From Alphaproteobacteria bacterium (GTDB taxonomy: Bacteria > Pseudomonadota > Alphaproteobacteria > UBA6615), in NCBI GenBank assembly GCA_965205535.1, contig CBDBHH010000005.1, forward strand, positions 266,712 through 330,711: a stretch of 64,000 bases of DNA. The letters run 5' to 3'. The notes beneath the pieces are model-generated. The model was not told where the DNA came from. It worked only from the letters and a program-made list of their open reading frames with translations, and did not search any database. Of this stretch, positions 23,903 to 62,435 are shown piece by piece. Every line of letters starts with the position of its first letter. Within the stretch, counting starts at the first letter, position 1. The position numbers were made by a program, and so were the translations under genes.

Positions 23903-25492
23903 GTGATGAACGCTCGAAAAATTCGAACCGCAACCCTGCCCGGCACGGTCATATTCGTTGCTGGCGTGTTGTTCGCCGCACCCGGACTGGCTCAGACACC
24001 CGAGCTTTCGGGACCCGCGCAAGCGCTCGACGGTAACGCCAATGGTGTCATCGAGCGCGCGGAAGCGCTCGGCCCTGCAGCCGCCAACTTCGACACGATC
24101 GATCTCGATAAAAGCGACACCCTCGACGGCGACGAATTGCGCCACTTTTTCGCCGGCGGCCCGCGTCCGGAGCCCAAGGCAGCCGCCAGCAGCCCCGCCG
24201 AGCCGCTCGCCGGCCCCGCTGTGGCCATGGATGCCAACAGCAACGGCATGATCGAAAAGGACGAGGCCCAGGGCCCGGCTGCGTCCAATTTCGATACGAT
24301 TGATCTCGACAAGAGCGGCACCCTCGACGGGTCGGAACTGCGCTACTTCTTCCGGGGTGGCGAACGCCCCGGCGGCCCGGCGAAGGCCGCAAGTGCGGAT
24401 GCGAAGCCATCTGGTGGCGCGCCCGGTGGACCGCCGCCTGCGCGCGTGGTTCTCGACAAGGTTGTCGAAGAGCGTATCGGCCAGACCACCCCCGTCGTAG
24501 GCCGCATCGTGGCGCAACAGTCCGGACCGGTCGCAGCGCGCATCAGCGGTCCCGTGGTGGAGATGCGTGTAGATGTCGGAGACCGTGTCGCGACCGGCGA
24601 TGTGCTCGCGCAGATCGACCGGGAACGCATGCAGCTCGAACGCGATCGTTATGCCGCCATCGTATCGCAGCAGCGTGCCAACCTGACGGCAGAACGCGCG
24701 GACCTCGAGCAGACCCAGAACGAACTGGACCGCCTGGAAGGCATTCGCAAATCGGCCGCCTTCTCGCAAGCCCGGTTCGAAGACGCGGTCCAGGCCGTCG
24801 CATCCCAGACCGGATCGGTCGCCGAAACCCGAGCCCAGCTGGCGCAGGCGCAAGCCCAGTTCAAGCGCGCCGATCGGGATCTGACGGACACCGAGATTCG
24901 CGCGCCCTATCCCGGCGTCGTCAGCGAAACCCATACCGAGATCGGCGCCTATCTGTCGATCGGCAACCCGGTCGCAACCATCATCAACGATAGCAATCTG
25001 GAAATTGAGGCCGACGTTCCGACCGCCCGGATCGCGAATCTGAGCGACGGGGATGCGGTAAGCATCCGGATCAGCGAAGGGTTGGTCATTCCCGCCACCC
25101 TGCGTGCGGTGGTGCCGGTCGAAAACCCCCGGACCCGGACACGGCCTGTGCGTTTCACACCCGATTTCGTCGGCATGGACGCACCACTGGCCGACAATCA
25201 GAGCGTGACGGTGTTGCTCCCGGTCGGCGGGTCGCGTGACGCTGTGACGGTTTCCAAGGACGCGGTCACCCAACGCAATGGCCAGAGCATGGTGTTTGTC
25301 GCGAACAACGGGCGCGCACAGCCACGCCCCGTGACGACCGGCGAGGCAACTGGCAGCCGACTCGTCGTGATTTCGGGCCTGAAGGCCGGTGATCTGGTCG
25401 TGGTGCGCGGCAACGAGCGGTTGCGCCCGGGCCAGCGCCTCCAGGATGTGGGCAGTGGCGAAGGCAAAACAAACGGCAGCGGCGGAGGCTGA
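23903..25492 (+). CDS. RND efflux periplasmic adaptor (membrane fusion protein) with an N-terminal tandem-duplicated EF-hand-like extension
   Basis: C-terminal about 370 aa is a typical HlyD/MFP (biotin-lipoyl-like and beta-barrel segments, ...DVLAQIDRERMQLERD...APYPGVVSE...). Residues about 40-150 contain four 12-residue loops fitting D-x-[DN]-x-[DNS]-G-x-[IL]-x3-E; the gene lies directly upstream of the RND pump. Confidence 0.8.
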   Translation: MMNARKIRTATLPGTVIFVAGVLFAAPGLAQTPELSGPAQALDGNANGVIERAEALGPAAANFDTIDLDKSDTLDGDELRHFFAGGPRPEPKAAASSPAEPLAGPAVAMDANSNGMIEKDEAQGPAASNFDTIDLDKSGTLDGSELRYFFRGGERPGGPAKAASADAKPSGGAPGGPPPARVVLDKVVEERIGQTTPVVGRIVAQQSGPVAARISGPVVEMRVDVGDRVATGDVLAQIDRERMQLERDRYAAIVSQQRANLTAERADLEQTQNELDRLEGIRKSAAFSQARFEDAVQAVASQTGSVAETRAQLAQAQAQFKRADRDLTDTEIRAPYPGVVSETHTEIGAYLSIGNPVATIINDSNLEIEADVPTARIANLSDGDAVSIRISEGLVIPATLRAVVPVENPRTRTRPVRFTPDFVGMDAPLADNQSVTVLLPVGGSRDAVTVSKDAVTQRNGQSMVFVANNGRAQPRPVTTGEATGSRLVVISGLKAGDLVVVRGNERLRPGQRLQDVGSGEGKTNGSGGG

Positions 25493-25497: not shown

Positions 25498-28400
25498 ATG
25501 AACCTGATCTCCGCGTCAATTCACCGTCCGATCGCGGTCATCGCGGTCGTCATTATGATCATCATGTTCGGCTGGGTGGCGCTGCAGCGCATCCCCATCC
25601 AGCTGGCACCGGACGTGCGACAGCCGGTGATCATCGTCGACACCTTCTGGCCAGGTGCGTCGCCGCTCGAGGTCGAGCGCGAGATCGTCAACCGCCAGGA
25701 AGAAGTCCTCAAGGGAATCGAGGGCGTGCGCAAGATCGAGAGCCGCGCGCGCACCGGCCGCTCGGATATCACACTTGAATTCGCGCCGAGCCAGAACATG
25801 GACCGTGCGCTTTTGCTGGTGGCAAATCGGCTCGACCGGGTCAGCGGATATCCCGAGGAAACCGACGAACCGACCCTGCGCACGTCGGGCACCGACGACA
25901 ATCCGATCGCCTGGTTCGTTTTGCGCCGACAGGCCGAGAACGACCGGGATCTGCTCACATACGGCGATTTCCTCGAGGACGTGGTCCAGGAGAGGATCGA
26001 GCGCATCCCGGGAATCTCCGGCGTCAACATATTCGGTGAGACCGAACGCGAGATGCGGATCATCATCGATCCCGAACAACTCGCCCAGTTCCGCCTGACC
26101 ATCGGCGACGTCGTCGAGCGGCTGCGCGCCGAGAACGCGTCGATCTCCGGCGGTGACGTCGAGGAAGGCAAGCGCGCCTACGTGGTGCGTACCGAAGGCG
26201 ATTTCACCACGCCCGATCAGGTCCTCGATGTTGTTCTGCGCTCGGATGCCGGCCGCGCGGACGGTCAGATCGGCCGCATCACGCTGCGCGACATCGCCCA
26301 GGTCGAACTCGGCTACAAGGAAGCGCGCGCGCTGCCCCACAGGTTCGATGAGCGCGCCATGGCGTTCAACATGACCCGCGAGCAGGGCGCCAACGTCCTG
26401 GCGGTGATGGACCAGGTGCATCGTGTTGTCGGAGACCTCGCGGAAGGGCCACTCAACCGGGTTGGCCTGATCGTCGAGAACGTGTTCGACGAGACCCTGT
26501 ATGTGAATTCGGCCATCTCTTTGGTGCAGCAGAATATCATCGTCGGCGGCATCCTCGCCGCCCTCATCCTGATGCTGTTCCTGCGATCATGGCGCCCGAC
26601 CCTCGTCGTTTCCCTGGCGATCCCGGTCTCGGTGATCGGTTCCTTCGTGGCCATGGCAGCACTCGGTCGTTCTCTCAATGTCATCAGCCTGGCGGGGATC
26701 GCCTTCGCGGTCGGTATGGTTGTCGACGCCGCCATCGTCGTGCTCGAGAATATCTTTCGGCTTCGCCAGGAGGGTCATTCTCGTGCGGAAGCCGCACGAA
26801 TGGGCGCATCGCAAGTCTGGCCGGCCGTGCTCGTATCGTCCCTGACCACCGTGATGGTGTTCATCCCGATCCTGGTCATGGAGCTTGAAGCCGGGCAGTT
26901 GTTCCGGGATATCGCTGTCGCGATCTCGGTCTCCGTCCTCCTGTCGTTGCTGGTCTCCGTGACGGTAATCCCGGCCCTCGCCAACCGTCTGCTGGTGAAC
27001 AGCGTGGCGGAAGGCAAAAAGACAAAACGCATACCCGTCGTCGATGACTTCGCCCACGCTTTCGTGAACTTCTGGCAGGATTTCACCCGAATGGTCGTGC
27101 GATCGAAATTGCGTGCGCTCGTCGTTGTCGGCGCCATCACGCTCGCATCGGGCGCGTTTACCCTGGCCTTCGCCCCCAAACTCGATTACCTGCCGACCGG
27201 TAACCGCAACTTCGTGTTCGGTTTCGTGAACGTACCGCCGGGATACAATCTCGACACCGTCACCGAGATCACCGAGCGGATCGCGAACCGAACCCGCAAC
27301 TTGTGGGCGTCGGAGACCGGACCGGAGTCCGAGGCCGGTGAACCGCCCAAGTTCCAGCGCTTCATCCGCGTGCCGTTCGCCGGCCGCGCCTTTATTGGCG
27401 GCACGTCGGTCGATCCGAGCCGTGCCGCCGAGTTGATCCCGGTCCTGCAGAACGCAGGGCGACAGGACCCCGGCGTTCTCACCTTCCCGAGCCAGCCATC
27501 GCTGTTCGGCCGTTCACTGGGCAGCGGCCGCACCATCGACGTCGATATCCGCGGATCGGACCTCGAACAGATCTACCAGGTCGCCTTCGATGTCTTTATC
27601 CGTCTCGCACCACGCTTCCCCTTCAGCGAAGGAAACCAGGTCCGGCCCATCCCGAGCCTGACCTTGTCGGCACCCGAAGTCCGGGTCGAGCCCAACCGCC
27701 TGCAACTCGCAGACAACGGCTTGTCGGCCCGCGCGCTCGGCCAGGCCGTCGACGCTTTCAACGACGGCCTGCGGGTCGCCGAAATAACAGTCGATGGCAA
27801 ACGGATCGACCTGACGCTAACCGGACCACCGAACATCATCGATCAAACCCAGGGGATCGGCTCTCTGCCGGTCGTGACCCGCGATGGGCGCATCGTGCCG
27901 GTCGAGGGGCTTGCAGATGTGAAAATCACCTCCGGCCCGACCGAGGTCAGGCGCGCCGACCGCGCCCGCACCGTGCGGCTACAGGTTCGTCCGAACGCAG
28001 ATACACCGTTGCAGAGCGCGTTCGAGCTGATTCAGGACGAAATCGTCAAACCCGTCGAAGAAGCGGGCCTGCCCGAGGGTGTCAGCATCCGGCTGACCGG
28101 GACCGCCGACAAGCTGCTGGAAACCTGGAACGAGCTGGTCATCGATCTGATTCTGGCGATCGTGATCGTCTATCTGGTGATGGCCGTTCTGTTCGAGAGC
28201 TTCATCTACCCGCTGATCATCATGCTCACCGTCCCCGTCGCCGCGGCGGGCGGCATTGCCGGGTTGGCGCTTTTGAACATCTGGGTCCTGCAGCCGCTCG
28301 ATATGCTGACCATGCTCGGATTTGTCATCCTGACCGGCATCGTCGTGAACAACGCGATTCTTCTGGTCCACCAGACCCTCTATCACATCCGCGAAGATGG

Positions 28401-28680
28401 CATGAGTGCGGATGATGCGATCATGCTGGCGACCCAGAACCGTGTCCGGCCGATCTTCATGTCGACCCTTACATCGGTGTTCGGCATGCTGCCGCTTGTC
28501 GTATTCCCCGGCGCAGGTTCGGAGCTCTATCGCGGCCTGGGGTCCGTCGTGCTGGGTGGCCTGTCATTGTCGGCCGTCCTTACCCTGGCGATCGTGCCGC
28601 CGATGATGTCGATTACCGTTGGCTGGCGCGAACGCCATCGAAACGATCAGGCGGACGCGAGCCCGACACCCGCATCATAG
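25498..28680 (+). CDS. RND multidrug efflux transporter permease (AcrB/HAE1 family)
   Basis: 1060 aa with 12 TM helices and two large periplasmic loops; the N-terminus MNLISASIHRPIAVIAVV... is typical of AcrB-like pumps. Confidence 0.9.
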   Translation: MNLISASIHRPIAVIAVVIMIIMFGWVALQRIPIQLAPDVRQPVIIVDTFWPGASPLEVEREIVNRQEEVLKGIEGVRKIESRARTGRSDITLEFAPSQNMDRALLLVANRLDRVSGYPEETDEPTLRTSGTDDNPIAWFVLRRQAENDRDLLTYGDFLEDVVQERIERIPGISGVNIFGETEREMRIIIDPEQLAQFRLTIGDVVERLRAENASISGGDVEEGKRAYVVRTEGDFTTPDQVLDVVLRSDAGRADGQIGRITLRDIAQVELGYKEARALPHRFDERAMAFNMTREQGANVLAVMDQVHRVVGDLAEGPLNRVGLIVENVFDETLYVNSAISLVQQNIIVGGILAALILMLFLRSWRPTLVVSLAIPVSVIGSFVAMAALGRSLNVISLAGIAFAVGMVVDAAIVVLENIFRLRQEGHSRAEAARMGASQVWPAVLVSSLTTVMVFIPILVMELEAGQLFRDIAVAISVSVLLSLLVSVTVIPALANRLLVNSVAEGKKTKRIPVVDDFAHAFVNFWQDFTRMVVRSKLRALVVVGAITLASGAFTLAFAPKLDYLPTGNRNFVFGFVNVPPGYNLDTVTEITERIANRTRNLWASETGPESEAGEPPKFQRFIRVPFAGRAFIGGTSVDPSRAAELIPVLQNAGRQDPGVLTFPSQPSLFGRSLGSGRTIDVDIRGSDLEQIYQVAFDVFIRLAPRFPFSEGNQVRPIPSLTLSAPEVRVEPNRLQLADNGLSARALGQAVDAFNDGLRVAEITVDGKRIDLTLTGPPNIIDQTQGIGSLPVVTRDGRIVPVEGLADVKITSGPTEVRRADRARTVRLQVRPNADTPLQSAFELIQDEIVKPVEEAGLPEGVSIRLTGTADKLLETWNELVIDLILAIVIVYLVMAVLFESFIYPLIIMLTVPVAAAGGIAGLALLNIWVLQPLDMLTMLGFVILTGIVVNNAILLVHQTLYHIREDGMSADDAIMLATQNRVRPIFMSTLTSVFGMLPLVVFPGAGSELYRGLGSVVLGGLSLSAVLTLAIVPPMMSITVGWRERHRNDQADASPTPAS

Positions 28681-28725: not shown

Positions 28726-29424
28726 ATGACCGGATCCGGAAACAGCCTCGCAGACATCCCGTTCCTCGAACCGCTGAACGAGTCTTCGCGCACCGCACTT
28801 GAACAACGTGCGCGCTGGGTCCGCTATACGTCCAACGACACGATCATCGACCGCGAGAGCGAATCCCGGGACGTGTTTTTCGTCGTGGAAGGCCGGGTAA
28901 GGGTCGTGAATTTTTCGATTTCAGGACGTGAGATCAGCTTCGACGAAATGGAGCCCGGCGGCGTGTTCGGCGAGCTCGCCGCGCTTGATGGCATGCCCCG
29001 CTCGGCCGCCGTCGTCGCCCTGACCGACACCCTTGTCGCGTCAATTTCACCGGACACGTTCCTGAATTTGCTGCGCGATCATCCCGACCTGGCCATTGGT
29101 GTGATGCAGGAACTGGCCAAGATCGTGCGTACGTCGACAGAGCGCATCATGGGTCTGTCCACGCTTGGCGCTCTCAACCGGGTGCACTCGGAAATCCTGC
29201 GGGAAGCGCGCGCCCATGCCGAGGACGGCGCCAACACGGCGCGCATATCACCGATCCCGGTCCACGCCGATATCGCTGCACGGGTCAGTACGACGCGTGA
29301 AACGGTCGCACGGGTCTTGAGCGATCTCACCAAGCAGGGCCTGGTCAAACGGGAAAAAGACGCCCTTGCCATTCTCGACCTCGAGCGGCTCGAGGACCTT
29401 GTTGAGGAAGTGCGGGACTTCTAA
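28726..29424 (+). CDS. Crp/Fnr-family transcriptional regulator (cNMP-binding domain plus C-terminal HTH; no FNR cysteine cluster)
   Basis: cNMP-binding segment FFVVEGRVRV...GGVFGELAALDGMPRSA and HTH RETVARVLSDLTKQGLV; sits 45 bp after the RND gene. Confidence 0.8.
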   Translation: MTGSGNSLADIPFLEPLNESSRTALEQRARWVRYTSNDTIIDRESESRDVFFVVEGRVRVVNFSISGREISFDEMEPGGVFGELAALDGMPRSAAVVALTDTLVASISPDTFLNLLRDHPDLAIGVMQELAKIVRTSTERIMGLSTLGALNRVHSEILREARAHAEDGANTARISPIPVHADIAARVSTTRETVARVLSDLTKQGLVKREKDALAILDLERLEDLVEEVRDF

Positions 29425-29464
29425 GTCTCTGTTCCAACTAAAGTTCTTATTTTTCTGGCCACCC

Positions 29465-29480
29465 TGTGATGCCCGTCACT
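29465..29480. promoter_or_regulatory. CRP-like box TGTGA-tgcccg-TCACT
   Basis: Seen directly 40 bp after the Crp gene stop, overlapping the start of small ORF 29466..29648; same consensus as the tandem boxes at 33826-33856. Confidence 0.4.
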
Positions 29481-29698
29481 GGGGAATACACAGGGGCGCA
29501 TTACATTGGTGTCATCGGCGACGGATCATCGCCGCACACCAACGGTACGGAGCTGAACATGTCACGACAAACCCGCATCAACGTCGCCGCTTTCTTTCTG
29601 GCAGCCCCGATGGTGATCGTCGGGGTTTCGATGACACCAGGCTTTTAGTTTCCACAGGTGTGATCTTTTCGCACTGATCCAACCTCCTCCTGGACTTG

Positions 29699-29737
29699 CG
29701 GCCGGCTCTCTTGAGACCGGCCGCCTTTCTTTTCCAA
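29699..29737 (+). terminator. putative intrinsic terminator (gcggccgg-ctctcttgaga-ccggccgc followed by a T-rich run)
   Basis: 8-bp perfect GC stem followed by ctttcttttcc on the plus strand. Confidence 0.5.
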
Positions 29738-29767
29738 CCTTGTTCCGTGATCAGCAGATGTTGGTAT

Positions 29768-31226
29768 TCAGAACGTCCAGCGTCGGTTGAGCCCGATCGA
29801 AAGCCTGTAGTTGTTGTAGGTGTAGTTACGACACCTGCCGATACGCTTCGCCGCCGAATGTGAATGTAAACGGTGTCCAGAACTCCCCGGCATTGGTGAA
29901 AATGCCCGACCAGGGGATGCCATAAGTCATCCGGACACGTCCGCCCCAGTCATGGCGGGTTTGGGCGCTGATCGATGGATCCCGGTCGTCGTAGCGATCA
30001 TTGTTGACGGTCAATGATGTCAGCAAAAAATCGCCGCCGCCGAACAACAGCGTGTGGCTTAAGCCGATCTCCATTCCATCGTAAGAATTGTAGCTGCGAG
30101 ACGCGATATTGCGGGTCTGGGTATATGTGACACGCAGGCGCTGACGTGGGGTCAGAATCTGCGAGGTTCCAACTTCGATCTCATACTCACGCCCGCTACG
30201 TTCCGTGGCCGTCAGGCTGCTCGTGATGTTGTTGTAGGACTGATATTTCATTGTCCCGCCGGCAAAAACCGACCAGGTGTTGGAAAGCGCATAGACCCAA
30301 TCAACAGTGGCACCCGCTGCCGTGAGATACTTCTCGCGCGACAAGTCGATGCGCTCATAGAGAAGACGCGGCGTTATTGTCGACGGTGCAAAATCAAGCT
30401 CGTACCCGAAATCGGCGGTGATGGCACGCAGGTCCAGGTCATCCTGCTGGATCTGTTCTCCCTGGTAGAAAACCAGCCCACCAAGCATCTTGTGCTGTTT
30501 CTGCAGTCCGAGGTCATGCTCAAAGGAAATCTGAGCCAAACCATTCAAGGCCATATCATCCTGGCGCGCGGAACTGCCGGTCGTTCGTGTCGGCAAATCA
30601 GCGGCGAGGCGGAGCTCGGACTTCGGTGACGCGTTGCGGTTCCAGTCATACTGGGTGGCGAAATTCATCGCGAAAGTGAAGATCGTCCGCTTGCGACGTG
30701 ACGCAATTTGGTCGAGATACTGGTCGATCTGGCGCCGCAGCTCAGGTGCCAGGTCCAGTTCCTGCAAGGAAACCAGTTCACGCTCGGCCTCATCGAGGTT
30801 GTCGAGACGGAAAAGGACGATTGCGAATAAAACCCGCACCACGGCCAGGTCGGGACGGATCAGGAGAATACGTTCCAGCGTCGCGCCCGCGCCACGCACA
30901 TTGCCATCACGAATTTGGGTCAGCGCATATCGAACGTTGAGTTCAATATTGTCGGGGTCTTCAAGCACCTGTTCGAATGTTACGGGCGGCCCCTTGCTGA
31001 AGGCCTCCAGGTCAAGTGCGTCCTGGGCTGTTCGCTCAACATCACGCTGAGTCTCGATCGATTCACGTACATCGGTTTCACGGGATTCCGTGTCCGACTG
31101 CTGGGCATGCGCAGGCACCGCGATTACGATCGCTCCGGCGATCACCAACCCATAGCGAAAACCGCACCGCACACGCCCATGCGCGCGCAATAGAGAACTC
31201 GGCACTCGAACCAACGAAACCCCCAA
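29768..31226 (-). pseudogene. outer-membrane protein with N-terminal TPR-like region and C-terminal beta-barrel (DUF560/Slam-like architecture); apparent frameshift near 29826-29832
   Basis: 466 aa ORF 31226..29826 has a signal peptide (AIVIAVPAHA) and a TPR-like helical region, then a strand-like sequence. The last beta-strand with terminal aromatic residue (...NYTYNNYRLSIGLNRRWTF*) is in the +1 frame immediately after the annotated stop. Confidence 0.5.
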
Positions 31227-31297
31227 AGTATCGGGGTATTAAGCATGATGTGCCAAATGGGGGCAAGCGTGAGGCACCGCTCTAACCCTTTGAGAAA

Positions 31298-33559
31298 TCA
31301 TTTCATTTCCTCAACGTGGATGCCTTTCCAGTCCTCCGGCGGCGGATCGAAGGAATAGTGGAAAATGCGCTCGGCGTAGAGCTCGTAGAACGCCTCGATG
31401 GCACCAGGCATTTCGACACAGAGGTTGAGTGCATCCTGGGCGCTGTCCCAGTCGCGAGCGCGATAAGCCTCCAGCATCCGCGCATGCTCACGCCGCAGGG
31501 CCTGGAAATCCTCGCTCACCGCCATAGGCGCATCACCCAACAATGCGTAAATACGAACCGCCTCTCGCTTGCCTTTCACGGCAATCCTGTCGAGCTCAAG
31601 GAAAGCGAAGTCGTCAGCCACCTGACTTTGCGTCGATTCACCCACAATGATGGGCACCCCATATGGCCGCGACTGGCCTTCGAGCCGGGCGGCGAGATTG
31701 ACCGCGTCACCCAACACCGAATAGTCAAACCGCTGGTCCGATCCCATGTTCCCGACGACACACTCGCCTGTGTTGAGACCAACCCCGACGGCTATGGCGA
31801 CTGCGTCCGGGTTCTCCGCCAGGCGCGAATCATTGACCTGCTCGAGCGCGCGCAGCATGGCCAGTGCGGCGTCACAGGCATGGGCAGCATGGGCCGGATC
31901 ATCGATCGGGGCGTTCCAGAACGCCATGATGCAATCGCCCATATACTTGTCGATGGTTCCGTCACGCTCCAGAATTTCAGCGGTCAGCGGCGTCAACAGG
32001 CGATTGATCAAGGTGGTCAGCGCCTGCGGATCATCGCGATGTTCTTCGGAAATGGATGTGAACCCGCGAATGTCGCAAAACAGCAGGGTCATCTCCCGCG
32101 TCTCGCCACCCAGCCTGAGCCGCTCGGGCTGGTCGGCAAGCTGTTCAACCAGTGCCGGCGACAGATATTGCCCGAAGGCCGTACGAATCTGGCGACGCTG
32201 GGTTTCCGATTGCAGATACGTGATCAGCGAGCTCGATAAATAGACCACCAGCACGACCAGCGCCGGGAAGACCGGGTCGATCAGAACGCCCACGCTCGTG
32301 AATGCAAACCACCCTGCTGCCACACCCGCTGTAATGGCGATCAGGCACACGATGGCGCTCGCGGTAACACCAAGTCGCGGCAGCAAAAGCACCAGAAAAA
32401 TTCCCAGCAGCGCGAACGCCGCGAGTTCCGCCCCCAATGTCCAGTCCGGGCGCGTCAGAAAACTTCCATTGAGAATCTGCTCCACGAGTTCGGCATGCAC
32501 TTCGACCCCGGGAATGATCGAGTTCAGCGGGGTCGCGCGAAGATCGAACAACCCCGGCGCGCTTGTCCCGACAAGTATGATCGCTCCCTCGATACCGTCA
32601 TCGGCCTTGATGGGTTCGGTGTCAGACCAGAGGCGCCATGCCGGTACATATCGTGCAGCTTCATGGCCGGTATAGCGCAACCACACATGGCCATCGCCGC
32701 TTGTCGGCACCCGCAAATTTCCGATCCGGATATCGGCGATACCCGAACTGTCGTCGACACCACCCTCACCGCTCGCGTCTGACATACGGATATTAAATCC
32801 CTGCGCGCCCTGTGCCACACGAAGCGCCTCGGCCCCGAGCGTCGGGTATAGGGGTGGCAGCTTGAACGGATCGTCATAGGCAGGCGTCGTTCCCGGCGCC
32901 ACATACTGTGTGAACAGTGGCACCCTGCGTATTAGCCCGTCCGCGTCGGCCTCGAAATTTATGTTGCCAACGCCCGAAGCTGCGGCCCCAAGCGCCGGCA
33001 AATTCGCGATCGCAGCGCCGTAGGCCGGCAAAAATGGATGCGGCGGGGATCCGCCGAGCCCGACACCGGCCTTCGGTGCGGGCGGCGGGGCGGTCTCGCG
33101 TGAGCGCGTAAACGCGAACCCGGCGACCACCCGCCCGCGCGCGAAGGCTTCTGCCAGGAGTTGGTCATGGTCGGGCAGTGCGGAGATCCGGGCGCGCAGG
33201 TCTGCATCATCCGGCCCGTCGGGCCAATCCGCGATGACGTTGGACGGCGATGTCCGGTCCGGCTCGGCAAACAACACATCGAATACGACCACCGCAGCCC
33301 CCTGCTCGTGCAGCCTGTCCACCAGCTCGGCGATCCGGGAGCGCGGCCAGGGCCATTGCCCGATTCGTGCCAGGCTTTCATCGTCGATATCCAGGATACG
33401 TACCGGCAGGCCGCTGTCATAAACCCGTGGCTCAATCCGCTGGTAGGTGTCGAAGGTCCACAATCTGGCCAGCTCAACAGGCTGCGGGTCCTCGACGCGC
33501 AGCAACAGCGCGAAGACGAGGATCAGGAGAGGAATGATACGGGCTTTCCAAGTGGTCAT
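31298..33559 (-). CDS. class III adenylate/guanylate cyclase with N-terminal CHASE2 extracytoplasmic sensor domain
   Basis: 753 aa with an N-terminal TM segment, a large periplasmic region and three further TM segments. C-terminal cyclase homology domain (LLFCDIRGFTSISE ... YMGDCIMAFWNAP ... GDAVNLAARLEG). Confidence 0.85.
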   Translation of the reverse strand: MTTWKARIIPLLILVFALLLRVEDPQPVELARLWTFDTYQRIEPRVYDSGLPVRILDIDDESLARIGQWPWPRSRIAELVDRLHEQGAAVVVFDVLFAEPDRTSPSNVIADWPDGPDDADLRARISALPDHDQLLAEAFARGRVVAGFAFTRSRETAPPPAPKAGVGLGGSPPHPFLPAYGAAIANLPALGAAASGVGNINFEADADGLIRRVPLFTQYVAPGTTPAYDDPFKLPPLYPTLGAEALRVAQGAQGFNIRMSDASGEGGVDDSSGIADIRIGNLRVPTSGDGHVWLRYTGHEAARYVPAWRLWSDTEPIKADDGIEGAIILVGTSAPGLFDLRATPLNSIIPGVEVHAELVEQILNGSFLTRPDWTLGAELAAFALLGIFLVLLLPRLGVTASAIVCLIAITAGVAAGWFAFTSVGVLIDPVFPALVVLVVYLSSSLITYLQSETQRRQIRTAFGQYLSPALVEQLADQPERLRLGGETREMTLLFCDIRGFTSISEEHRDDPQALTTLINRLLTPLTAEILERDGTIDKYMGDCIMAFWNAPIDDPAHAAHACDAALAMLRALEQVNDSRLAENPDAVAIAVGVGLNTGECVVGNMGSDQRFDYSVLGDAVNLAARLEGQSRPYGVPIIVGESTQSQVADDFAFLELDRIAVKGKREAVRIYALLGDAPMAVSEDFQALRREHARMLEAYRARDWDSAQDALNLCVEMPGAIEAFYELYAERIFHYSFDPPPEDWKGIHVEEMK

Positions 33560-33825
33560 CCCTGCAATCTAGCCCAGTGCGCGATTCCGGAGAACGCCGG
33601 CGCGCTTGCATCTAAAGCGCGACGGACGCGAAGGAGATCACCCCGAGCGCGAGAAAGGATGCCGCGCCCCACCGCAGATACATGCGCAAGACAGTGCGGC
33701 TTGCATAGTTTCCGAAAATTCCGTTGCTCGCCAGATGGCGCATATGCGCGGGTCGCCGGGTCATGAGGTCGGTCCGGTTGCTGTTGAAATCCACGCACAA
33801 AGTGCCGTGCGATCGGCTTCGTGTC

Positions 33826-33856
33826 TGTGACGCCCGTCACTGTGACCCCCGTCACT
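33826..33856. promoter_or_regulatory. two tandem CRP-like boxes (TGTGA-cgcccg-TCACT / TGTGA-cccccg-TCACT) sharing one T
   Basis: Seen directly in the 528-bp divergent intergenic region between the CHASE2 cyclase (minus) and the FecR-domain gene (plus); each is a perfect GTGAC...GTCAC palindrome. Confidence 0.45.
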
Positions 33857-34086
33857 TCCCAGGCCGGCAATCATCGCTAGGTTTGGCTCACAACAACGAA
33901 TGGGAAACATGATGATGATCGCGCAACACAACTCACTGAAGCTGATCGGGCACGGCACCCTGATTGTGACCGGCATGCTGACAGGCGGTGTTGGCGCCGC
34001 CGTAATTGTCCTCTTTGCCGCCGCCACGGGAATTTAGGTGCGAGAACGCCTTTTCGACGCTATCTGAACAACTTAGGATATCCGCC

Positions 34087-35721
34087 ATGTTCAATCGCTC
34101 TGCCACTCTCTTCACCGTCGTCACGATCGCCATGACATCTGCCCCGGTTGCACATGGCCAGGGGACCGCCGCACGCGCCGGCGTGGCCGCCGCCGTGCGG
34201 GGCGATGTGGTTTTGATTGCCGCCGCACCACGCCAGGACATCCGGGCGGTCGGCGAGAACGTGCAGAGCGGCGATCCTGTTTTTCTCGGAGATACCATCG
34301 AGACAGGTCCGGATTCAGGCCTCCAGATCATGCTGATGGACGAAACAATTTTCACGATCGGCCCGGACGCGGCCTTGATCATCGACGAGTTTGTCTATGA
34401 TCCCGAAACCAGCGCCGGGAAAGTCACCGCATCGGTTCTGAAGGGCGCCTTCCGTTTTGTCTCCGGTCGCGTCGCCAAGGAAGAGCCGCGCAACATGAAC
34501 GTGAAGACCCCCGTTGGGACGATCGGCATTCGCGGCACATCGACCGCGGGACGCGTCATTCCGGCGAACCCGAACGACCCCAACAGCGAAATCTCGGCCG
34601 ATATCGTGCTGCTCGGGCCGGGCGCCGATAACAATGCAAATGAGCGCGCCGGTCGAATCATCGTCTCCAATGCAGACACGTCGGTTGAAATTTCACGTTC
34701 GGGCTTCGGCACGAACATCGCCGGGATCGATGCAGCACCGACCATTCCCGTGCGGTTTGAGCCATCTGTTGTGTCCGGTCTGACTGGTGACCTCGGTACG
34801 GATGGCGGTGCACGTCCGGCATCCCGACCCGCGGCCGGCCCCGACGCGCAGAACGGCAATGATCAATCAGGCGGCAGCGACGGCAATCCACCCAACAGCG
34901 ACACAGGCGCAAACAACGGCGACGGTTCGACGGCGGCCCGCCCCGCAGGACCTGCAGCACCCGCGGGACAAAACTCCAACGATGCAGGCGTGTCCGGGCC
35001 TGCCGGCGGCGCGGCAAGCAGCCCCGTCATCCCCCGCGGCCCGGCTCCCGGAAGCGCCGTAGCCGCGGGTCCGGTAGCGGGAGGCGGCATCAACCTCGGA
35101 CAGGTGAACGCATTGTCGGGTCAGACGATTGGCGCCAGCGTCGTCAATGCCGGGGTCCTGAACCAGCTTGGCGCCAATCAGAATCAGGCCCAGCAGTTGC
35201 TGCTGGCTGCGGTCGAAGAGGGTGCCGGGTCGTTCAATAATGCGGTCACGACATTCTCACAGCTGCAGTCCATAGAGACGGGTAAAGCGAGCTATGATTT
35301 CGGCACGATCAATCTCAGCTATGTCAGCGGGGCGCACCAAAACAGCGGTGGCAGCTACAACGCATCTGCCTTGATCGATTTCGGTGCGCGCACGATTGAC
35401 CTCACGGTGGCGAATGTCAGCTACTTCTTCAACGGCGGTACAGGGCGGCTGTTCGTGTTCAAGGACGACGGTGGCAGCGGCCCAACCGACGGAACATTTG
35501 ACGGTGACAACGGCCCGGTAAAGAACACCTGGGACTCATCCGTCGACACGACCAACTTCCCGACGGCGCCCACAGACGGGGCCACCGCAAAGGTGACCGC
35601 AACGATCCTGAACAACACCGAGACGGGCGTGATCGCCGGCGCCGGACGGATCAATGTGCGGATCGAGGAAAATGGCGGCAACACCGTGAGCGCCGGCGGA
35701 AAAACGGTCGCGAGGCAATAA
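34087..35721 (+). CDS. secreted FecR-domain protein with Gly/Pro/Ala-rich low-complexity linker and a C-terminal domain of unknown function
   Basis: The start was chosen at MFNRSATLFTVVTIAMTSAPVAHG (signal peptide, AGGA ribosome-binding site). FecR-like region DVVLIAAAPRQDIRAVGENVQSGDPVFLGDTIETGPDSGLQIMLMDETIFTIGPDAALIIDEF. FecR-domain genes commonly neighbour CHASE2 sensor genes. Confidence 0.65.
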   Translation: MFNRSATLFTVVTIAMTSAPVAHGQGTAARAGVAAAVRGDVVLIAAAPRQDIRAVGENVQSGDPVFLGDTIETGPDSGLQIMLMDETIFTIGPDAALIIDEFVYDPETSAGKVTASVLKGAFRFVSGRVAKEEPRNMNVKTPVGTIGIRGTSTAGRVIPANPNDPNSEISADIVLLGPGADNNANERAGRIIVSNADTSVEISRSGFGTNIAGIDAAPTIPVRFEPSVVSGLTGDLGTDGGARPASRPAAGPDAQNGNDQSGGSDGNPPNSDTGANNGDGSTAARPAGPAAPAGQNSNDAGVSGPAGGAASSPVIPRGPAPGSAVAAGPVAGGGINLGQVNALSGQTIGASVVNAGVLNQLGANQNQAQQLLLAAVEEGAGSFNNAVTTFSQLQSIETGKASYDFGTINLSYVSGAHQNSGGSYNASALIDFGARTIDLTVANVSYFFNGGTGRLFVFKDDGGSGPTDGTFDGDNGPVKNTWDSSVDTTNFPTAPTDGATAKVTATILNNTETGVIAGAGRINVRIEENGGNTVSAGGKTVARQ

Positions 35722-35743
35722 GCCTGGCGCCACGGCACAGAAC

Positions 35744-36505
35744 TCAATCGGGCTTCAAAACCCCCAAGACCTCGGGGGCCGCCCCGGTCAGCATCCGCAG
35801 ATCCGATGTCGGCGTCACCAGGTCGAACCCGTCCGCGATCATTTGTGCCGAATAGTCGGTTCGGGTGGCGTGGACACCGGCGCGTATACCTGCCGCGTGG
35901 GCACCCTCTCTGATCTGTGCGATCAGATCCGCCACAGGTCCTTCGAAATTGTCATGCTTGGGCGGATGCCCGTGAGAAAACGCCAGATCCGTCGGCCCGA
36001 TATAAACCGCGTCGAGCCCGGGCGTTTCGGCGATTTCCGCAAGGTTCGCCACGCCCTCACGGGTCTCGATCATCGCGAAGGTCAGGATCTCCTCGTTCGC
36101 ATGCTCCAGGTAATCCGCCCCGCCATAGATCGAGCCACGGTACGCACCGTTCGAGCGATAGCCGTCCGGCGGATACCGGCATGCGCCGACAAAGCGCTCC
36201 GCGTCATCCCGGTTGTTGATCATCGGGCAGATGATGCCGTAGGCACCCGCGTCCAGACACCGCATGATGACCGAGGGTTCGTTCCAGGGGACCCGGATGA
36301 TGGGAACCGCATTGCCGGCCGACATGGCCTGAAGCATCGGGATCGCGTCCGGGACATCAATCGGTCCATGCTGCAGATCGATGGTCAGCCCGTCCCAGCC
36401 CTGATGGGACATCACTTCCGCCACATAGGGGCTCGGCACCGAGATCCAGCCATTCACGGCAGGACGACCGGTGGTCCATAGTTCACGTAGACGATTTTTG
36501 CGCAT
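35744..36505 (-). CDS. HpcH/HpaI-family aldolase
   Basis: 253 aa with class II aldolase motifs (IDLQHGPID, MIETREGVANLAEIAETPGLDAVYIGPTDL). Confidence 0.75.
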   Translation of the reverse strand: MRKNRLRELWTTGRPAVNGWISVPSPYVAEVMSHQGWDGLTIDLQHGPIDVPDAIPMLQAMSAGNAVPIIRVPWNEPSVIMRCLDAGAYGIICPMINNRDDAERFVGACRYPPDGYRSNGAYRGSIYGGADYLEHANEEILTFAMIETREGVANLAEIAETPGLDAVYIGPTDLAFSHGHPPKHDNFEGPVADLIAQIREGAHAAGIRAGVHATRTDYSAQMIADGFDLVTPTSDLRMLTGAAPEVLGVLKPD

Positions 36506-36583
36506 GGATCCCCTGCCCTGACGATTTTCGAGTCACCAGTCTGGCATGGGGGCAAACGGTGCACCACCGCCCGGGTGCAGGCC

Positions 36584-37960
36584 TTAGGCGGACTGGCGTT
36601 CAAGGATCTCCGCGCGCAGCTGGGCCTGGCGTTCAGCCGTCAGCGGATAGCGCCAAACAATCCCTAGTGCCAAAAGTTTGAAGACGATGGGGCAAACGCC
36701 GAACAGAATCGCGAGCACCAGCAAGGCACTGTCGCCGTTATACATATCGGGCACAAACCCGGCCCGCGCGAGAATAAGGAGCGATAATCCACCGACGAGC
36801 GCCGCGGCAGCCTTGGCCGCCATTGCCCAGACGGCGAAGAAAATCCCGGTACGTTGCTGGCCTGTTCTGAGAATATCCTGATCCACAACATCGGCGAGCA
36901 TTGAAGCGGGCATAGCGAGATCGGCACCCAATGTAAGCCCTGCCACCATCGCAACGAACAAAAACGGAATGGCGTCGCCGGAGCCCAAGAACGGAACCGT
37001 CGAGAAAGTCGCGATCGCAAGAATGAGCGCGAAACGCCACGCCACATGTTTGCCAAGCCAGCCTGCGAGCAACATCCAGAGCGGTGTTCCGAGGATCGCA
37101 GCGCCGAAATAGACTGCGAGATAGATGGGCTCCCAATCAGGGCGCTCTATGACCTGCTTAATGTAGAAAAAGAACAACGCCACCGGAAACGCGTTGGCTA
37201 TCCCGTTCGCGAAATAGCAGGCCAATATTCGCAGATACGGCTTGTTGTCGAGCATTTGACGCATGCCATCACGCCAGTTTACCGACGGTCCGGTGAAACT
37301 GGGAACCGGTCGTTCGCGCACAAAGAAGACCGTCGCCACGATCGGGATCGGCAATATCATCATGCCAACGATGCCAATCAAATTCAGCGCGTCCCGTTCA
37401 GGGAAGAAGGCAATGCCCCCTTTGTTCGCGATAAGAAACAAGCCCGACGCAATCAGCGTACCGACGACCGAGAAAAGATGACGATAGAGAAATATCCGGC
37501 TGCGCTGATGATATGAGGTGCTGAGTTCCGCTCCCATCGCGGTGTAGGGCATGAACAATGCTGTGCCCGACGTGAACAACACAAAACTCCACACTGCCAG
37601 GTAAACGACATCCGCATCTGGCGGCGGCAGGAAGACTTTGTAGATTGCCAATGTGAGTGGCGCCCATGCCAACACCATCCAGGGAATGCGCCGCCCAAAC
37701 CGACTGCGTGTCTTGTCGCTCAACCATCCGATCAGCGGGTCGGTCACGAAATCCCATACGCGCGTGGCCAAAATCACAAACCCCGCGTCGACCATGGATA
37801 TTCCGCCGAGCGACGAATAGACCTTCGGCAAAAACATGAAAACACCGATCGCGAGCAACGAAACAGGCATGGAGATCGACCCGAACACGATCAGCGTCGT
37901 CAGGCTCAAACGATCCGTGGCATGATCTGGCTGCGCGGTCGTATCATCCTCCGCGGTCAT
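36584..37960 (-). CDS. MFS transporter (GPH/MelB-like sugar:cation symporter family)
   Basis: 458 aa, 12 predicted TM helices, GPH-type motif DKTRSRFGRRIPWM. Confidence 0.75.
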   Translation of the reverse strand: MTAEDDTTAQPDHATDRLSLTTLIVFGSISMPVSLLAIGVFMFLPKVYSSLGGISMVDAGFVILATRVWDFVTDPLIGWLSDKTRSRFGRRIPWMVLAWAPLTLAIYKVFLPPPDADVVYLAVWSFVLFTSGTALFMPYTAMGAELSTSYHQRSRIFLYRHLFSVVGTLIASGLFLIANKGGIAFFPERDALNLIGIVGMMILPIPIVATVFFVRERPVPSFTGPSVNWRDGMRQMLDNKPYLRILACYFANGIANAFPVALFFFYIKQVIERPDWEPIYLAVYFGAAILGTPLWMLLAGWLGKHVAWRFALILAIATFSTVPFLGSGDAIPFLFVAMVAGLTLGADLAMPASMLADVVDQDILRTGQQRTGIFFAVWAMAAKAAAALVGGLSLLILARAGFVPDMYNGDSALLVLAILFGVCPIVFKLLALGIVWRYPLTAERQAQLRAEILERQSA

Positions 37961-40595: not shown

Positions 40596-41801
40596 CTACT
40601 TCACGCGCTCGAGTACGGTCGCGATGCCCTGACCGACACCGATGCACATGGTGCAGAGCGCGTACCTGGCATCGCGATCCTTGAGCTCGTAGGCCGCCGT
40701 GGTCGCCAGACGCGCACCGCTCGCCCCGAGCGGATGGCCGATCGAAATGGCACCGCCATTGGGATTCACATGCTCGGCATCATCGGCGAGCCCAAGATCG
40801 CGGGTCACCGCGAGCGCCTGCGCGGCGAAGGCCTCGTTCAGCTCGATCACATCGATATCGCCAATCTTTAGACCGAGGCGCTCCAGCAGCTTGTGGGTGG
40901 CCGGTGCCGGCCCAAATCCCATGATCCGCGGCGGAACACCTGCGGTCGCCGTTCCCACAACGCGCGCGATGGGCGTGAGGCCGTATTTTTCAACGGCTTC
41001 TTCCGACGCGATGATCATGGCGCAAGCACCATCATTCACACCCGACGCGTTGCCCGCCGTGACGGTCCCGCCTTCGCGGAACGGCGTCGGCAGCTTTTCC
41101 AGGCCCGCCATATCCGTGCCGGGTCGCGGGTGTTCATCCGTATCGACCACCACCGGGTCGCCGCGGCGCTGCGGCACCTCGACGGACACGATCTCCTGCG
41201 CGAAGCGTCCGCGCTCCTGGGCCGCTTTCGTGCGCTGCTGCGAGCGGAAGGCCAGCGCATCCTGGTCGGCGCGCGACACCTGGAATTCCTCGGCCACGTT
41301 CTCCGCCGTCTCGGGCATCGCATCGATGCCGTACTCGGCCTTCATCTTCGGATTAACGAAACGCCAGCCGATGGTCGTGTCTTCGACCTGACTGGCGCGT
41401 GAGAATGCACTGGTCGCCTTCGGCATCACGAAAGGCGCGCGCGACATGCTCTCCACGCCGCCGGCGACAATCAGATCGGCCTCGCCGGTGCGAATTGCGC
41501 GGGACGCGGCCGTCAGCGCCTCGAGGCCGGAGCCGCAAAGCCGGTTCACGGTCGCGCCCGGAACGTCGGATGAATATCCCGCCAGCAACAGGGACATCCG
41601 CGCGACATTGCGGTTGTCCTCGCCCGCCTGGTTGACGTTGCCGTAATAAACCTCGTCGACCTTGTCCCAGTCGACGCCGGGGTTTCGGTCCACCAGCGCC
41701 TTCATGGGAATCGCGCCCAGATCATCCGTCCTTACGCTCGACAAGGAACCGCCATAGCATCCGAATGGTGTGCGAACCGCGTCACAGATATAGGCTTCGG
41801 G
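40596..41801 (-). CDS. acetyl-CoA C-acyltransferase / beta-ketothiolase
   Basis: Thiolase active-site regions (NRLCGSGLEA, GAISIGHPLGASGAR, CIGVGQG). The start was set at MPEAYICDAVRTPFG (ATG 41801), preceded by AGGAGAGAAATA. Confidence 0.85.
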   Translation of the reverse strand, partial: PEAYICDAVRTPFGCYGGSLSSVRTDDLGAIPMKALVDRNPGVDWDKVDEVYYGNVNQAGEDNRNVARMSLLLAGYSSDVPGATVNRLCGSGLEALTAASRAIRTGEADLIVAGGVESMSRAPFVMPKATSAFSRASQVEDTTIGWRFVNPKMKAEYGIDAMPETAENVAEEFQVSRADQDALAFRSQQRTKAAQERGRFAQEIVSVEVPQRRGDPVVVDTDEHPRPGTDMAGLEKLPTPFREGGTVTAGNASGVNDGACAMIIASEEAVEKYGLTPIARVVGTATAGVPPRIMGFGPAPATHKLLERLGLKIGDIDVIELNEAFAAQALAVTRDLGLADDAEHVNPNGGAISIGHPLGASGARLATTAAYELKDRDARYALCTMCIGVGQGIATVLERVK

Positions 41802-51943: not shown

Positions 51944-52351
51944 TCAGGCGCCGCTGGCCGAACAAGCCAATTCAAGCCGCGTCTCTTCGGCCAGCAGAAG
52001 CGCCCACGTGTCGGCCGGCATGAAACGCGGTGCCAGATACTTGTAAAGGTCGCGCAAAAGGGGCGTCACGGCATAGGGGTCAGAAATATTGCCCGGCAGG
52101 CGGTCCCATGATTCCGCGATCTCGTCCCAGGGGTTCAGGCGGGCGAACATCTCATCGCGAATATCGCGGATTGCGCTGCGGTGGAATTCAAAATTTTCGA
52201 ACAGGGAAACGATATTCGAAAGGCGCGCATCGATCTCGGCCAGGCTAAGTCCCAACGCGTGAACGGGGACTGAAATAAGCCGGGCGACCGGATCTACATC
52301 GCTGAGAATGCTCGCATGGTGGGCAAAGTCGCGGCGCACTATTTTTCGCAA
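51944..52351 (-). CDS. hypothetical protein (possible gene remnant) abutting the island's left direct repeat
   Basis: 135 aa ORF whose first codons overlap repeat copy 1; no motif recognised. Confidence 0.3.
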   Translation of the reverse strand: MRKIVRRDFAHHASILSDVDPVARLISVPVHALGLSLAEIDARLSNIVSLFENFEFHRSAIRDIRDEMFARLNPWDEIAESWDRLPGNISDPYAVTPLLRDLYKYLAPRFMPADTWALLLAEETRLELACSASGA

Positions 52352-52912: not shown

Positions 52913-53010
52913 GTGAGACAGTCTAGCGGCCTTCCGTATAAAAATCAAACGTGGGTTTGATTTTTATACAACTTAAACCAATGCCCTTTAAAAGGGCGCA
53001 AACAGCCCCA

Positions 53011-58575: not shown

Positions 58576-58578
58576 GGT

Positions 58579-62432: not shown

Positions 62433-62435
62433 ACC

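Follow-up and report, generated by a model that had tools for sequence, protein, structure and literature searches.

Do a Crp-family regulator, a TPR-containing outer-membrane protein (OMP), a CHASE2-sensor nucleotide cyclase and a secreted FecR-domain protein that are encoded side by side form one signalling circuit, and, if they do, in which direction would the signal run and which genes would it switch on? We address this question at a locus of an alphaproteobacterium of the UBA6615 lineage, using a 64-kb stretch of contig CBDBHH010000005.1 (hereafter the window, in whose coordinates all positions are given). The window has a G+C content of about 63%, its nearest public relatives are marine Rhodospirillaceae metagenome-assembled genomes (MAGs), and proteins identical to its own, including the 454-aa OMP, are on public record. 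The genes of interest follow the order HDAC-like gene (minus strand); HlyD-type adaptor, AcrB and Crp (plus); OMP and CHASE2 cyclase (minus); FecR-domain gene (plus); HpcH aldolase and MFS transporter (minus). A first-pass annotation had read part of this order, together with three CRP-like palindromes, as a self-contained cyclic AMP (cAMP) or cyclic GMP (cGMP) circuit. Pfam searches bear out its four domain calls (Crp, CHASE2 cyclase, FecR and TPR OMP), and the five elements it had listed lie where it had placed them, with Crp after the RND genes, the OMP between Crp and the cyclase, and FecR divergent from the cyclase. The interpretation towards which we lean is that two units of unequal age together make the locus a cAMP signalling circuit, and that this circuit is a variant of the Clr/CHASE2/NsrA paradigm of Sinorhizobium meliloti. 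The older unit would consist of the gene for the Crp-family cAMP receptor and its own target, in which a box at -41.5 is predicted to drive a small open reading frame (sORF1) for a membrane peptide of about 30 aa. The other unit, a cassette, would combine an operon for a CHASE2 adenylate cyclase and a DUF560/Slam-like OMP with a divergent, Crp-dependent sORF2-fecR operon, through whose promoter the cassette would be wired to Crp.

Conserved boxes and the promoters they are predicted to mark

The palindrome TGTGA-N6-TCACT (TGTGANNNNNNTCACT) is found exactly three times in the 64 kb, with starts at 29465, 33826 and 33841; the chance expectation is 0.04, and three copies were reached in none of 100 shuffles. 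All three palindromes of the first-pass annotation are thus exact matches, and they are conserved in relatives. Box 1 (TGTGATGCCCGTCACT, 29465..29480, plus strand) starts 40 nt past the crp stop codon and is followed after 21 nt by the hexamer TACATT (29502..29507, plus strand), which places its centre at about -41.5 of the predicted sORF1 promoter. Box 3 (TGTGACCCCCGTCACT, 33841..33856, plus strand) has the same relation to the hexamer TAGGTT (33878..33883, plus strand), again 21 nt downstream, and is centred at about -41.5 of the predicted sORF2-fecR promoter, for which its upstream tandem copy, box 2 (TGTGACGCCCGTCACT, 33826..33841, plus strand), is centred at -56.5. A weight matrix made from ten orthologous sites gives the three boxes 28.7-33.5 bits and the runner-up position in the window 8.7 bits, and in 1.09 Mb of unrelated loci boxes with at least nine of the ten consensus positions occur at a background of about 0.1 per 10 kb. 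The sole other nine-of-ten match to the CRP consensus in the window, TGCGAACCGCGTCACA (41771-41786), receives a low score from the family matrix and falls within the 5' portion of an open reading frame (ORF) on the minus strand.

The relatives compared here extend from L001 and L019 (about 82-86% DNA identity) over L083 and L086 (OMP about 62% identical), L084 (52%) and L085 (45%) to L087-L091, which were found via the Crp protein and whose Crp identity falls from 75 to 58%. In ten of ten genomes examined, a box with nine of the ten consensus positions lies 10-74 nt past the crp stop codon. Wherever they were compared, in genomes whose Crp identity is 58-97%, the half-sites TGTGAC and GTCACT are invariant and the four central bases are free to vary (spacers seen in the relatives are GCCCG, CCCCG, GTCCG, GCCTG, GCGGG, GCCGG, GCACG and CGGTG), while the intergenic DNA flanking the boxes is otherwise poorly conserved. 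The gap between box and -10-like hexamer is exactly 21 nt in all relatives, the hexamer having the form TAnnTT or CAnnnT (TACATT, TAAGTT, TACGTT, TACTTT and TATCTT among them). This fixed gap puts the centre of the box at -41.5, the geometry of class II CRP-dependent promoters. Downstream of the -10 hexamer there follow a ribosome-binding site of the GGAG type and then a hydrophobic ORF of 29-33 aa. At the FecR promoter the corresponding order is box 3, 21 nt, TAGGTT, a ribosome-binding site, sORF2, and the FecR ATG 50 nt past the sORF2 stop codon. By their conservation and position the boxes are promoter elements, namely predicted CRP-type sites. The expectation of the first-pass annotation that they sit where regulation would occur is supported by this geometry, and the targets can now be specified as sORF1 on the one side and sORF2 plus the FecR gene on the other, both sORFs having escaped it.

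Boxes 2 and 3 form a 15-bp duplication with a one-base overlap, and this tandem was seen in no locus but the window and L001; one box alone occupies the position in more distant relatives, L083 and L086 each carrying an orthologue of box 3. In the window, a minus-strand -10-like hexamer CACTTT (33799-33804) lies at the mirror-image distance of 21 nt from the upstream tandem box, and because of this spacing box 2 may serve a divergent promoter directed at the cyclase. L085 has one box, which is oriented towards a 60-aa sORF and the cyclase. Together these two arrangements make Crp control of the cyclase operon possible in some genomes; in L083 and L086, the intergenic region divergent from the cyclase has no box, and such control is not a conserved feature. 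Between the OMP stop and the FecR start of L050 (5650-5745), which represents a distant OMP-FecR-cyclase operon, lie two CRP-type boxes spaced 23 bp apart; the second is followed by 21 nt, TATGGT, GGGAGG and an ATG. These boxes before a FecR gene suggest that control of the FecR partner by Crp is recurrent.

The Crp-family regulator and the peptide genes

The regulator is a 232-aa protein (28726..29424, plus strand) with a cNMP_binding domain (PF00027, E 9.5e-21, 74 bits) and an HTH_Crp_2 domain (PF13545, 48.5 bits). Although it is only 27% identical to E. coli CRP, the six cAMP contacts of the latter (G71, E72, R82, S83, T127 and S128) are all identical in it (FGEL...PRSA, RTSTE), and the DNA contacts R180, E181 and R185 are kept in a recognition helix that reads RETVAR as against RETVGR. 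The PDB matches to CAP chains support the same register. Its best solved relatives are GlxR (73.6 bits), Clr (7PZA, 70 bits) and M. tuberculosis Crp. Judged by this alignment, the adjacent Crp has the residues needed for reading TGTGA and for binding cAMP.

sORF1 (29559..29648, plus strand), preceded by a GGAG ribosome-binding site, is predicted to encode the 29-aa hydrophobic peptide MSRQTRINVAAFFLAAPMVIVGVSMTPGF. Homologues with conservative substitutions are present in L019, L083, L084, L086, L087 and L088, and analogous sORFs of 29-32 aa in L089-L091; independent gene callers reported it in L084, L086, L087, L090 and L091. It is followed by an intrinsic terminator (29698..29733, plus strand; a GC-rich hairpin and a T run, -24.1 kcal/mol, z -5.95), which is kept in L019, L083 and L088. 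The 5' leader of sORF1 (29511-29545) folds as a hairpin with z -2.2; in L083 and L086 a hairpin built from another sequence occupies this place, a hint at a conserved leader structure. The succession of crp stop codon, box, 21 nt, -10 hexamer, ribosome-binding site and a hydrophobic ORF of about 30 aa was observed behind every Crp homologue examined in the ten genomes, and in a Magnetospirillum genome the crp-box-sORF unit is present where there is neither pump nor cyclase. The unit is likewise found without the cassette in L088, L089, L090 and L091; in L088 and L090 the whole order of HDAC, adaptor, AcrB, crp, box and sORF1 persists. That the crp/box/sORF1 unit is conserved across Rhodospirillales even where the cassette is missing is, as far as these sequences indicate, a new observation. 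Since the unit persists where the cassette is missing, Crp is not dedicated to it; the family is broad (2905 matches at E<=1e-20), and Crp is best regarded as a conserved, probably multi-input regulator with the cassette as its neighbour.

sORF2 (33909..34037, plus strand), encoding a 42-aa hydrophobic peptide, is the first gene of the predicted Crp-dependent operon. It is kept in L001, L083 and L086, where gene callers reported it as a 42-aa gene. Neither sORF1 nor sORF2 receives a Pfam or NCBIfam assignment at normal thresholds, and an Rfam search of 28.6-36 kb (E<=1) found no known RNA element around the boxes or the sORFs. Upstream of the cyclase there is also a third small ORF (33612-33764, minus strand; 50 aa, with a hydrophobic C-terminus), which is left doubtful because it is kept only in L001.

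The CHASE2 cyclase and its predicted messenger

The 753-aa cyclase (31298..33559, minus strand) unites a CHASE2 sensor (Pfam E 8e-61) with a class IIIb catalytic domain (Guanylate_cyc, E 1e-23), whose closest solved relative is P. aeruginosa CyaB (3R5G, E 5e-32). It keeps both metal-binding Asp residues and the transition-state pair of Asn and Arg (FCDIRGF, MGDCIM and VNLAARLE). The first-pass annotation had proposed that the specificity-determining residues be inspected. They turn out to be Lys in IDKYMGD and Thr in LNTGE, where Lys with Asp or Thr denotes ATP and Glu with Cys or Gly denotes GTP; the guanylate cyclase Cya2 (2W01), aligned alongside, carries Glu in place of the Lys. With this ATP signature, the predicted messenger is cAMP. 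From these residues the enzyme is predicted to be active and ATP-specific, and its gene probably forms one operon with that of the OMP. Of the circuit using cAMP or cGMP that had been suggested at the outset, the cAMP version is accordingly favoured by the Lys/Thr pair and by the Crp contacts; its self-containment does not hold, given the breadth of the Crp family and the occurrence of the crp unit without the cassette.

Resemblance of the OMP and the FecR protein to a type 11 secretion system

The 454-aa OMP (29826..31190, minus strand; the reading frame searched with Pfam spans 29826-31226) matches TPR_19 and, marginally, SlipAM/DUF560, and is predicted to consist of a signal or anchor helix, a periplasmic TPR region and a barrel. 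In its AlphaFold2 model (pLDDT 87) the TPR region covers residues 61-166 and a barrel of about 14 strands residues 169-453. A TPR N-terminal region joined to a 14-strand DUF560 barrel is the definition of the Slam proteins (PMC5449769). Among 61 homologues of the OMP, 33 match PF04575 SlipAM (best E 4.9e-10) and 29 match PF24575 TPR_Slam. On the strength of these profiles and of the modelled fold, we assign the OMP to the DUF560/Slam family of type 11 secretion systems (T11SS).

The FecR-domain protein (34087..35721, plus strand; 544 aa) has an SPI-type signal peptide and a FecR domain (Pfam E 3.8e-10, residues 69-153); its gene likely starts at the ATG at 34087 and not at the TTG at 34006. 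It is laid out as a FecR domain (30-235), a disordered linker rich in Gly, Pro and Ala (241-383) and an eight-strand C-terminal barrel (385-544). The cargo of T11SS has a comparable layout, in which a variable domain at the N-terminus and an eight-strand barrel at the C-terminus are accompanied by disordered regions (PMC12282271). In structure comparison the C-terminal barrel scores 7.5 with fHbp, 6.7 with NHBA, 6.2 with TbpB, 5.0, 4.6 and 4.2 with hemophilins, 5.0 with HpuA and 4.8 with both LbpB and PmSLP, where generic eight-strand membrane barrels score 4.6-5.4. The domain obtains no Pfam or NCBIfam assignment at normal thresholds and falls below those of TbpBBD and FHBP_C. Below threshold, FHBP_C is matched by eight of 28 members of the FecR-barrel family (best E 0.0085) and TbpB with E 0.18-0.36; seven of eight PDB profile matches are TbpB barrels, recognised through the motif Y..DFG.(K/R)..G, and an hhalign comparison with fHbp (P 5e-4) covers the first two strands only. 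The sequence support for a cargo-type barrel is weak, and it points in the same direction as the structure comparison. An attempt to bridge the barrel to TbpBBD through 1.84 billion representatives was abandoned: its short matches were gene fragments, and Pfam runs on ten of the matches gave FecR or nothing.

The same C-terminal domain is found in the FecR partners of the OMP-FecR-cyclase operons of the Thalassospira type (hhalign probability 94%, E 1.4e-7). By hidden Markov model (HMM) the barrel is detected in 13 of 36 FecR ORFs from loci with the OMP and in none of ten from loci without it, or in one of 11 if L001 is counted, which has the barrel and has lost its OMP gene by deletion; this association is suggestive only, since HMMs detect diverged barrels incompletely. 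With 229 representatives at E<=0.001, the family of the FecR-associated barrel is small, and the barrel is nearly always fused to FecR. Some proteins of 1400-3400 aa carry it in 5-13 tandem copies (P0379, P0381, P0473 and P0483). In the T11SS literature that we searched, FecR, CHASE2 and cyclases are not mentioned, and no paper combined CHASE2 with a T11SS term. The pairing of a DUF560/Slam-family OMP with a FecR protein that carries a T11SS-cargo-like eight-strand barrel, as the models portray it, is new here.

Linkage and instability of the cassette

That FecR genes are recurrent neighbours of CHASE2 sensors, as the first-pass annotation had remarked, is supported by a survey of 83 loci with cyclase homologues: both the OMP and the FecR protein are encoded within 8 kb of the cyclase in 29, often in one co-directional operon, and a FecR protein without the OMP in 11 more. 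In the remainder the neighbourhood of the cyclase is different, with for instance a GAF-HD protein. In L009 (6709-7944) and L020 (6612-7850) such a protein, with GAF and HD domains, precedes a cyclase homologue that lacks OMP and FecR neighbours, and is possibly a cyclic-nucleotide-responsive phosphodiesterase. In L075 (3440-7835), from Ensifer adhaerens, the envelope partners are of another kind, the genes divergent from the CHASE2 cyclase encoding a TPR protein of small size, a short FecR protein, an HlyD adaptor and an ABC exporter with a C39 peptidase.

The link between Crp and the cassette, on which the original proposal depended, is kept in L083, L084 and L086 and does not extend beyond the subclade of the window. 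In this one subclade of marine Rhodospirillales, the cassette is positioned between crp/sORF1 and hpcH. Two different deletions affect it in relatives, L001 lacking window positions 29332-31723 and L019 lacking 32509-37866, the latter with a junction overlap of 16 nt; in MAG-derived loci deletions may be assembly artefacts. L084 has kept the cyclase and the OMP and lost the FecR gene, and L087 has an insertion sequence (IS) element in the cyclase region. Throughout these and other loci in which the cassette is deleted, truncated, interrupted or absent (L001, L019, L084, L087, L088 and L090), crp, sORF1 and the pump stay in place.

Comparison with known systems

The first-pass annotation regarded the signal and output of CHASE2-FecR modules as uncharacterised, and thereby overlooked the CyaD1/D2/K-NsrA-Clr cascade, through which infection is autoregulated in the legume symbiont S. 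meliloti, and its target smc02177. In that bacterium a protein signal of plant origin leads the CHASE2 cyclases CyaD1, CyaD2 and CyaK to raise cAMP; the outer-membrane protein NsrA, which acts upstream of CyaK, is needed for perception; and Clr has among its targets two genes beside cyaD1, smc02178 and smc02177, the latter a FecR-domain gene and a direct target (PMC5498481, PMC7529298, PMC10127613, PMC13001267). Clr itself (SMc02175), a Crp-family protein encoded beside cyaD1 (SMc02176), activates its targets through a box with the core GTNNCNNNNGNNAC (PMC10127613). The window shares with this cascade a CHASE2 cyclase, a nearby Crp-like gene and a FecR-domain gene beside the cyclase; furthermore, its boxes GTGAC-N4-GTCAC, all three within the form GTGAY-N4-GTCAC, fit the Clr core, which had been determined experimentally (PMC10127613), and box 3 precedes sORF2-fecR. 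As taken from the pSymB record and Pfam, NsrA (1190 aa) is encoded directly upstream of cyaK and contains a FecR domain, then TPR, then a C-terminal barrel. The cyclase of L082, which is probably cyaD2, also has a FecR neighbour, and a FecR-domain neighbour is found at all three S. meliloti cyclases. Unlike NsrA, which is a single chain, the window divides FecR and TPR/barrel between two proteins, the one with a 14-strand barrel of the DUF560/Slam type, the other with a cargo-type eight-strand barrel, and BLASTP of NsrA against the window OMP and FecR protein is not significant (E 0.1 and 1.3). The two systems also differ in their boxes (strict CRP consensus TGTGAC-N4-GTCAC in the window, HGTYHC-N4-GRWACA for Clr), in the recognition helix, RETVAR being of the main-cluster type whereas Clr belongs to Crp cluster G (as described in PMC10127613), and in the small peptide genes that form the first cistrons in the window; Clr is no better a match to the window Crp than GlxR (70 versus 73.6 bits). 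As the host is a free-living marine Rhodospirillaceae bacterium, its signal is not legume-derived.

The predicted promoters resemble the class II promoters of E. coli CRP in having a 16-bp site of the TGTGA-N6-TCACA type at -41.5, 21 nt before the -10 hexamer, in place of a -35 element. They depart from the E. coli system in showing no evident link to catabolite control and in having as their conserved target a tiny membrane peptide gene behind crp. With the Slam/T11SS machineries (Neisseria Slam1/2 with TbpB, LbpB, fHbp and HpuA, and the hemophilin secretors) the window shares an OMP made of TPR and a 14-strand DUF560 barrel, adjoined by the gene of a protein that is predicted to have a signal peptide, a variable N-terminus, disorder and an eight-strand barrel. 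In contrast to Slam cargo, this protein bears an N-terminal FecR domain rather than a nutrient- or host-binding handle, and its barrel has diverged beyond the reach of the Pfam models TbpBBD and FHBP_C; the further partner of the OMP is a signalling enzyme and not a TonB-dependent receptor. The FecA-FecR-FecI and PupB-PupR systems differ more deeply, as the window FecR protein has a cleavable signal peptide and neither an N-terminal anti-sigma domain nor a membrane anchor, and the output at the locus is a nucleotide cyclase; in the ten genes scanned with Pfam (22.7-39.6 kb) we found no extracytoplasmic function (ECF) sigma factor and no TonB-dependent receptor or transducer. A cluster of a CHASE2 cyclase, a FecR protein of the outer membrane and a TPR protein has been reported from Campylobacterota, as a gene co-occurrence only; unlike the window, it has a phosphodiesterase among its members, and its description mentions no Crp boxes.

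Proposed mechanism and alternatives

We propose that stimulation of the periplasmic CHASE2 domain would cause the cyclase to turn ATP into cAMP, the enzyme type and specificity being read from its residues. cAMP-Crp would then occupy TGTGAC-N4-GTCACT and bring about class II activation of sORF1 and of sORF2-fecR, a step for which conservation supports the promoter architecture and binding is presumed. The OMP would receive the FecR protein via its C-terminal barrel and hold or display it at the outer membrane, as fold, family and gene linkage suggest. By analogy, the OMP/FecR pair could be a two-protein equivalent of NsrA that couples an envelope or surface cue to CHASE2. If the pair acts upstream of CHASE2, induction of the FecR protein by Crp would create positive feedback. 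We consider a cAMP circuit that activates the FecR gene the best reading because the domains, the conserved boxes, the Crp residues, the cyclase signature and the recurrent linkage all agree with it.

Several facts weigh against this proposal. The organism is known from a metagenome-assembled genome only. The cassette is dispensable, being deleted, disrupted or absent in several close relatives, and Crp, as a member of a broad family, is not cassette-dedicated; other cyclases may feed it. The window OMP reaches PF04575 marginally (22.1 bits, cut-off 22), there is no Slam structure among its PDB fold matches, which are headed by BcsC, PelB and OmpG, and 23 FecR ORFs beside an OMP have no HMM-detected barrel, though hhalign recovers it in the Thalassospira group. 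Furthermore, the Clr-regulated FecR protein of S. meliloti, smc02177, is not needed for perception (PMC5498481, PMC7529298, PMC10127613, PMC13001267), from which it follows that the FecR protein may be an output and not part of the sensor. This raises the main alternative, unlikely in our estimate though far from negligible, in which the cyclase senses alone and the FecR protein is an adhesin-like surface or released product, made on the command of cAMP-Crp and exported by a constitutively expressed T11SS-like OMP. Such an arrangement would fit the predicted control of the FecR gene by Crp, the lack of a box facing the cyclase-OMP operon in L083 and L086, the S. meliloti Clr targets smc02177 (FecR) and smc02178, which are needed for a downstream phenotype and not for perception, the delivery of cargo to the surface or medium by known T11SS (PMC12282271), and a weak NCBIfam match of the FecR protein to the Leptospira surface adhesin Lsa33, itself a FecR-domain protein. 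It is harder to reconcile with NsrA, which has the same domain content and acts upstream of CyaK, with L084, which keeps cyclase and OMP without the FecR gene, and with the loci of the Thalassospira type, in which OMP, FecR and cyclase share one co-directional operon, an organisation that fits a complex better than a relation of regulator and target.

A further alternative concerns the OMP alone, which might be an NsrA-like receptor or porin, or an exporter of the BcsC/PelB type, rather than a secretin for the FecR protein, whose barrel would then be merely a periplasmic domain. The marginal SlipAM score and the lead of BcsC and PelB among the fold matches speak for it, as do the sub-threshold sequence evidence for a TbpB/fHbp-type barrel and the fact that FecR, CHASE2 and cyclase partners are not listed in T11SS surveys. 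The barrel of BcsC has 16 strands, whereas the model of the OMP shows 14, as in Slam; half of the OMP family matches both Slam-specific Pfam models, polysaccharide synthesis genes were not found among the ten nearby genes scanned with Pfam (22.7-39.6 kb), and, as no solved Slam stands among the PDB matches, its absence from the fold matches is uninformative. We hold this alternative to be improbable. The idea of the first-pass annotation that the circuit also governs the adjacent RND efflux pump appears highly doubtful. The pump lies close by, crp beginning 45 nt after acrB, and the order with pump and HDAC-like gene is kept in L083, L084, L086, L087, L088 and L090; but upstream of the pump genes there is no site with at least eight of the ten consensus positions or above 8.7 bits, the gene order suggests that the pump operon reads into crp rather than that Crp acts on the pump, and L089 and L091 have the same Crp family without an adjacent pump. 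It seems still more remote that the boxes serve something other than the adjacent Crp, be it another Crp/Fnr paralogue, of which the genome probably encodes some, or structural DNA or RNA elements that lie near crp by coincidence. GTGAC-N4-GTCAC can indeed form a short hairpin, and box 1 follows closely on the crp stop. Nevertheless, we rejected terminators and REP-like hairpins as candidates, for there is no T run after the boxes, their fold z values, -2.3 and -1.0, are weak beside the -5.95 of the true terminator, and, while the loop bases vary, the flanking T and CT of TGTGAC/GTCACT, outside the stem, are invariant. The fixed spacing to the -10 hexamer, the occurrence of box and crp together in all ten genomes, and a motif of the CRP type (TGTGA) and not of the FNR type (TTGAT), next to a protein with an R-E-x-x-x-R reading head, equally favour Crp.

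Neighbouring genes

The adaptor gene (23903..25492, plus strand), probably the first of an hlyD-acrB-crp unit, encodes an HlyD-type RND periplasmic adaptor (Pfam HlyD_3 and HlyD_D23) with EF-hand motifs at residues ~130-151, which were flagged also in the orthologues of L083, L084, L086 and L088. It is followed by the gene for an AcrB-type RND transporter (25498..28680, plus strand; ACR_tran, E 3.6e-202), and between acrB and crp no terminator-like site was found; the adaptor-acrB-crp order, with the HDAC-like gene as a further part of it, is repeated in the six relatives named above for the pump. At the other end of the window, positions 52000-62500 have a low G+C content (50-57% compared with 63%) and code for an AAA_13 ATPase, a T5orf172/MUG113 protein, a DEAD/ResIII helicase, an MmeI-type restriction-modification enzyme split over two ORFs, and a Fic protein; this region is probably a defence island. 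No tRNA genes were found in the 64-kb window.

General implications

S. meliloti provides the only worked case of CHASE2 signalling, and it needs an outer-membrane protein. In the window and some 30 related loci the parts of an NsrA-type protein appear to be shared out between a Slam-like OMP and a FecR protein whose barrel is of the cargo type, and with this split arrangement the outer-membrane step can be pictured in concrete and testable terms. For T11SS outside the well-studied host-associated cluster, the arrangement further suggests a role in signalling, the first that is not nutritional, together with a new class of cargo. Related loci occur in cultured Thalassospira strains (L003, L016 and L017), which makes experiments feasible, and the promoter architecture is clean enough for defining the Crp regulon of uncultured marine Rhodospirillaceae, in which the small peptide behind crp is a conserved target mostly missed by annotation pipelines.

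Taking these strands together, we tentatively raise a broader possibility, which we regard as considerably less secure than the circuit itself: DUF560/T11SS OMPs with FecR cargo might be the general outer-membrane arm of many CHASE2 receptors, and the crp-box-peptide unit a core cAMP output that has gone unrecognised. The FecR protein would be docked in, or displayed by, the OMP via its barrel, the linker of about 140 residues would span the periplasm, and the FecR domain would touch CHASE2. If so, a secretion-system family would have been recruited for a trans-envelope sensor and not for nutrient uptake, which would explain both the linkage of FecR and CHASE2 genes and the relay of a protein signal by NsrA. 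Likewise, crp, its box and the peptide of about 30 aa would represent a core output of alphaproteobacterial cAMP signalling.

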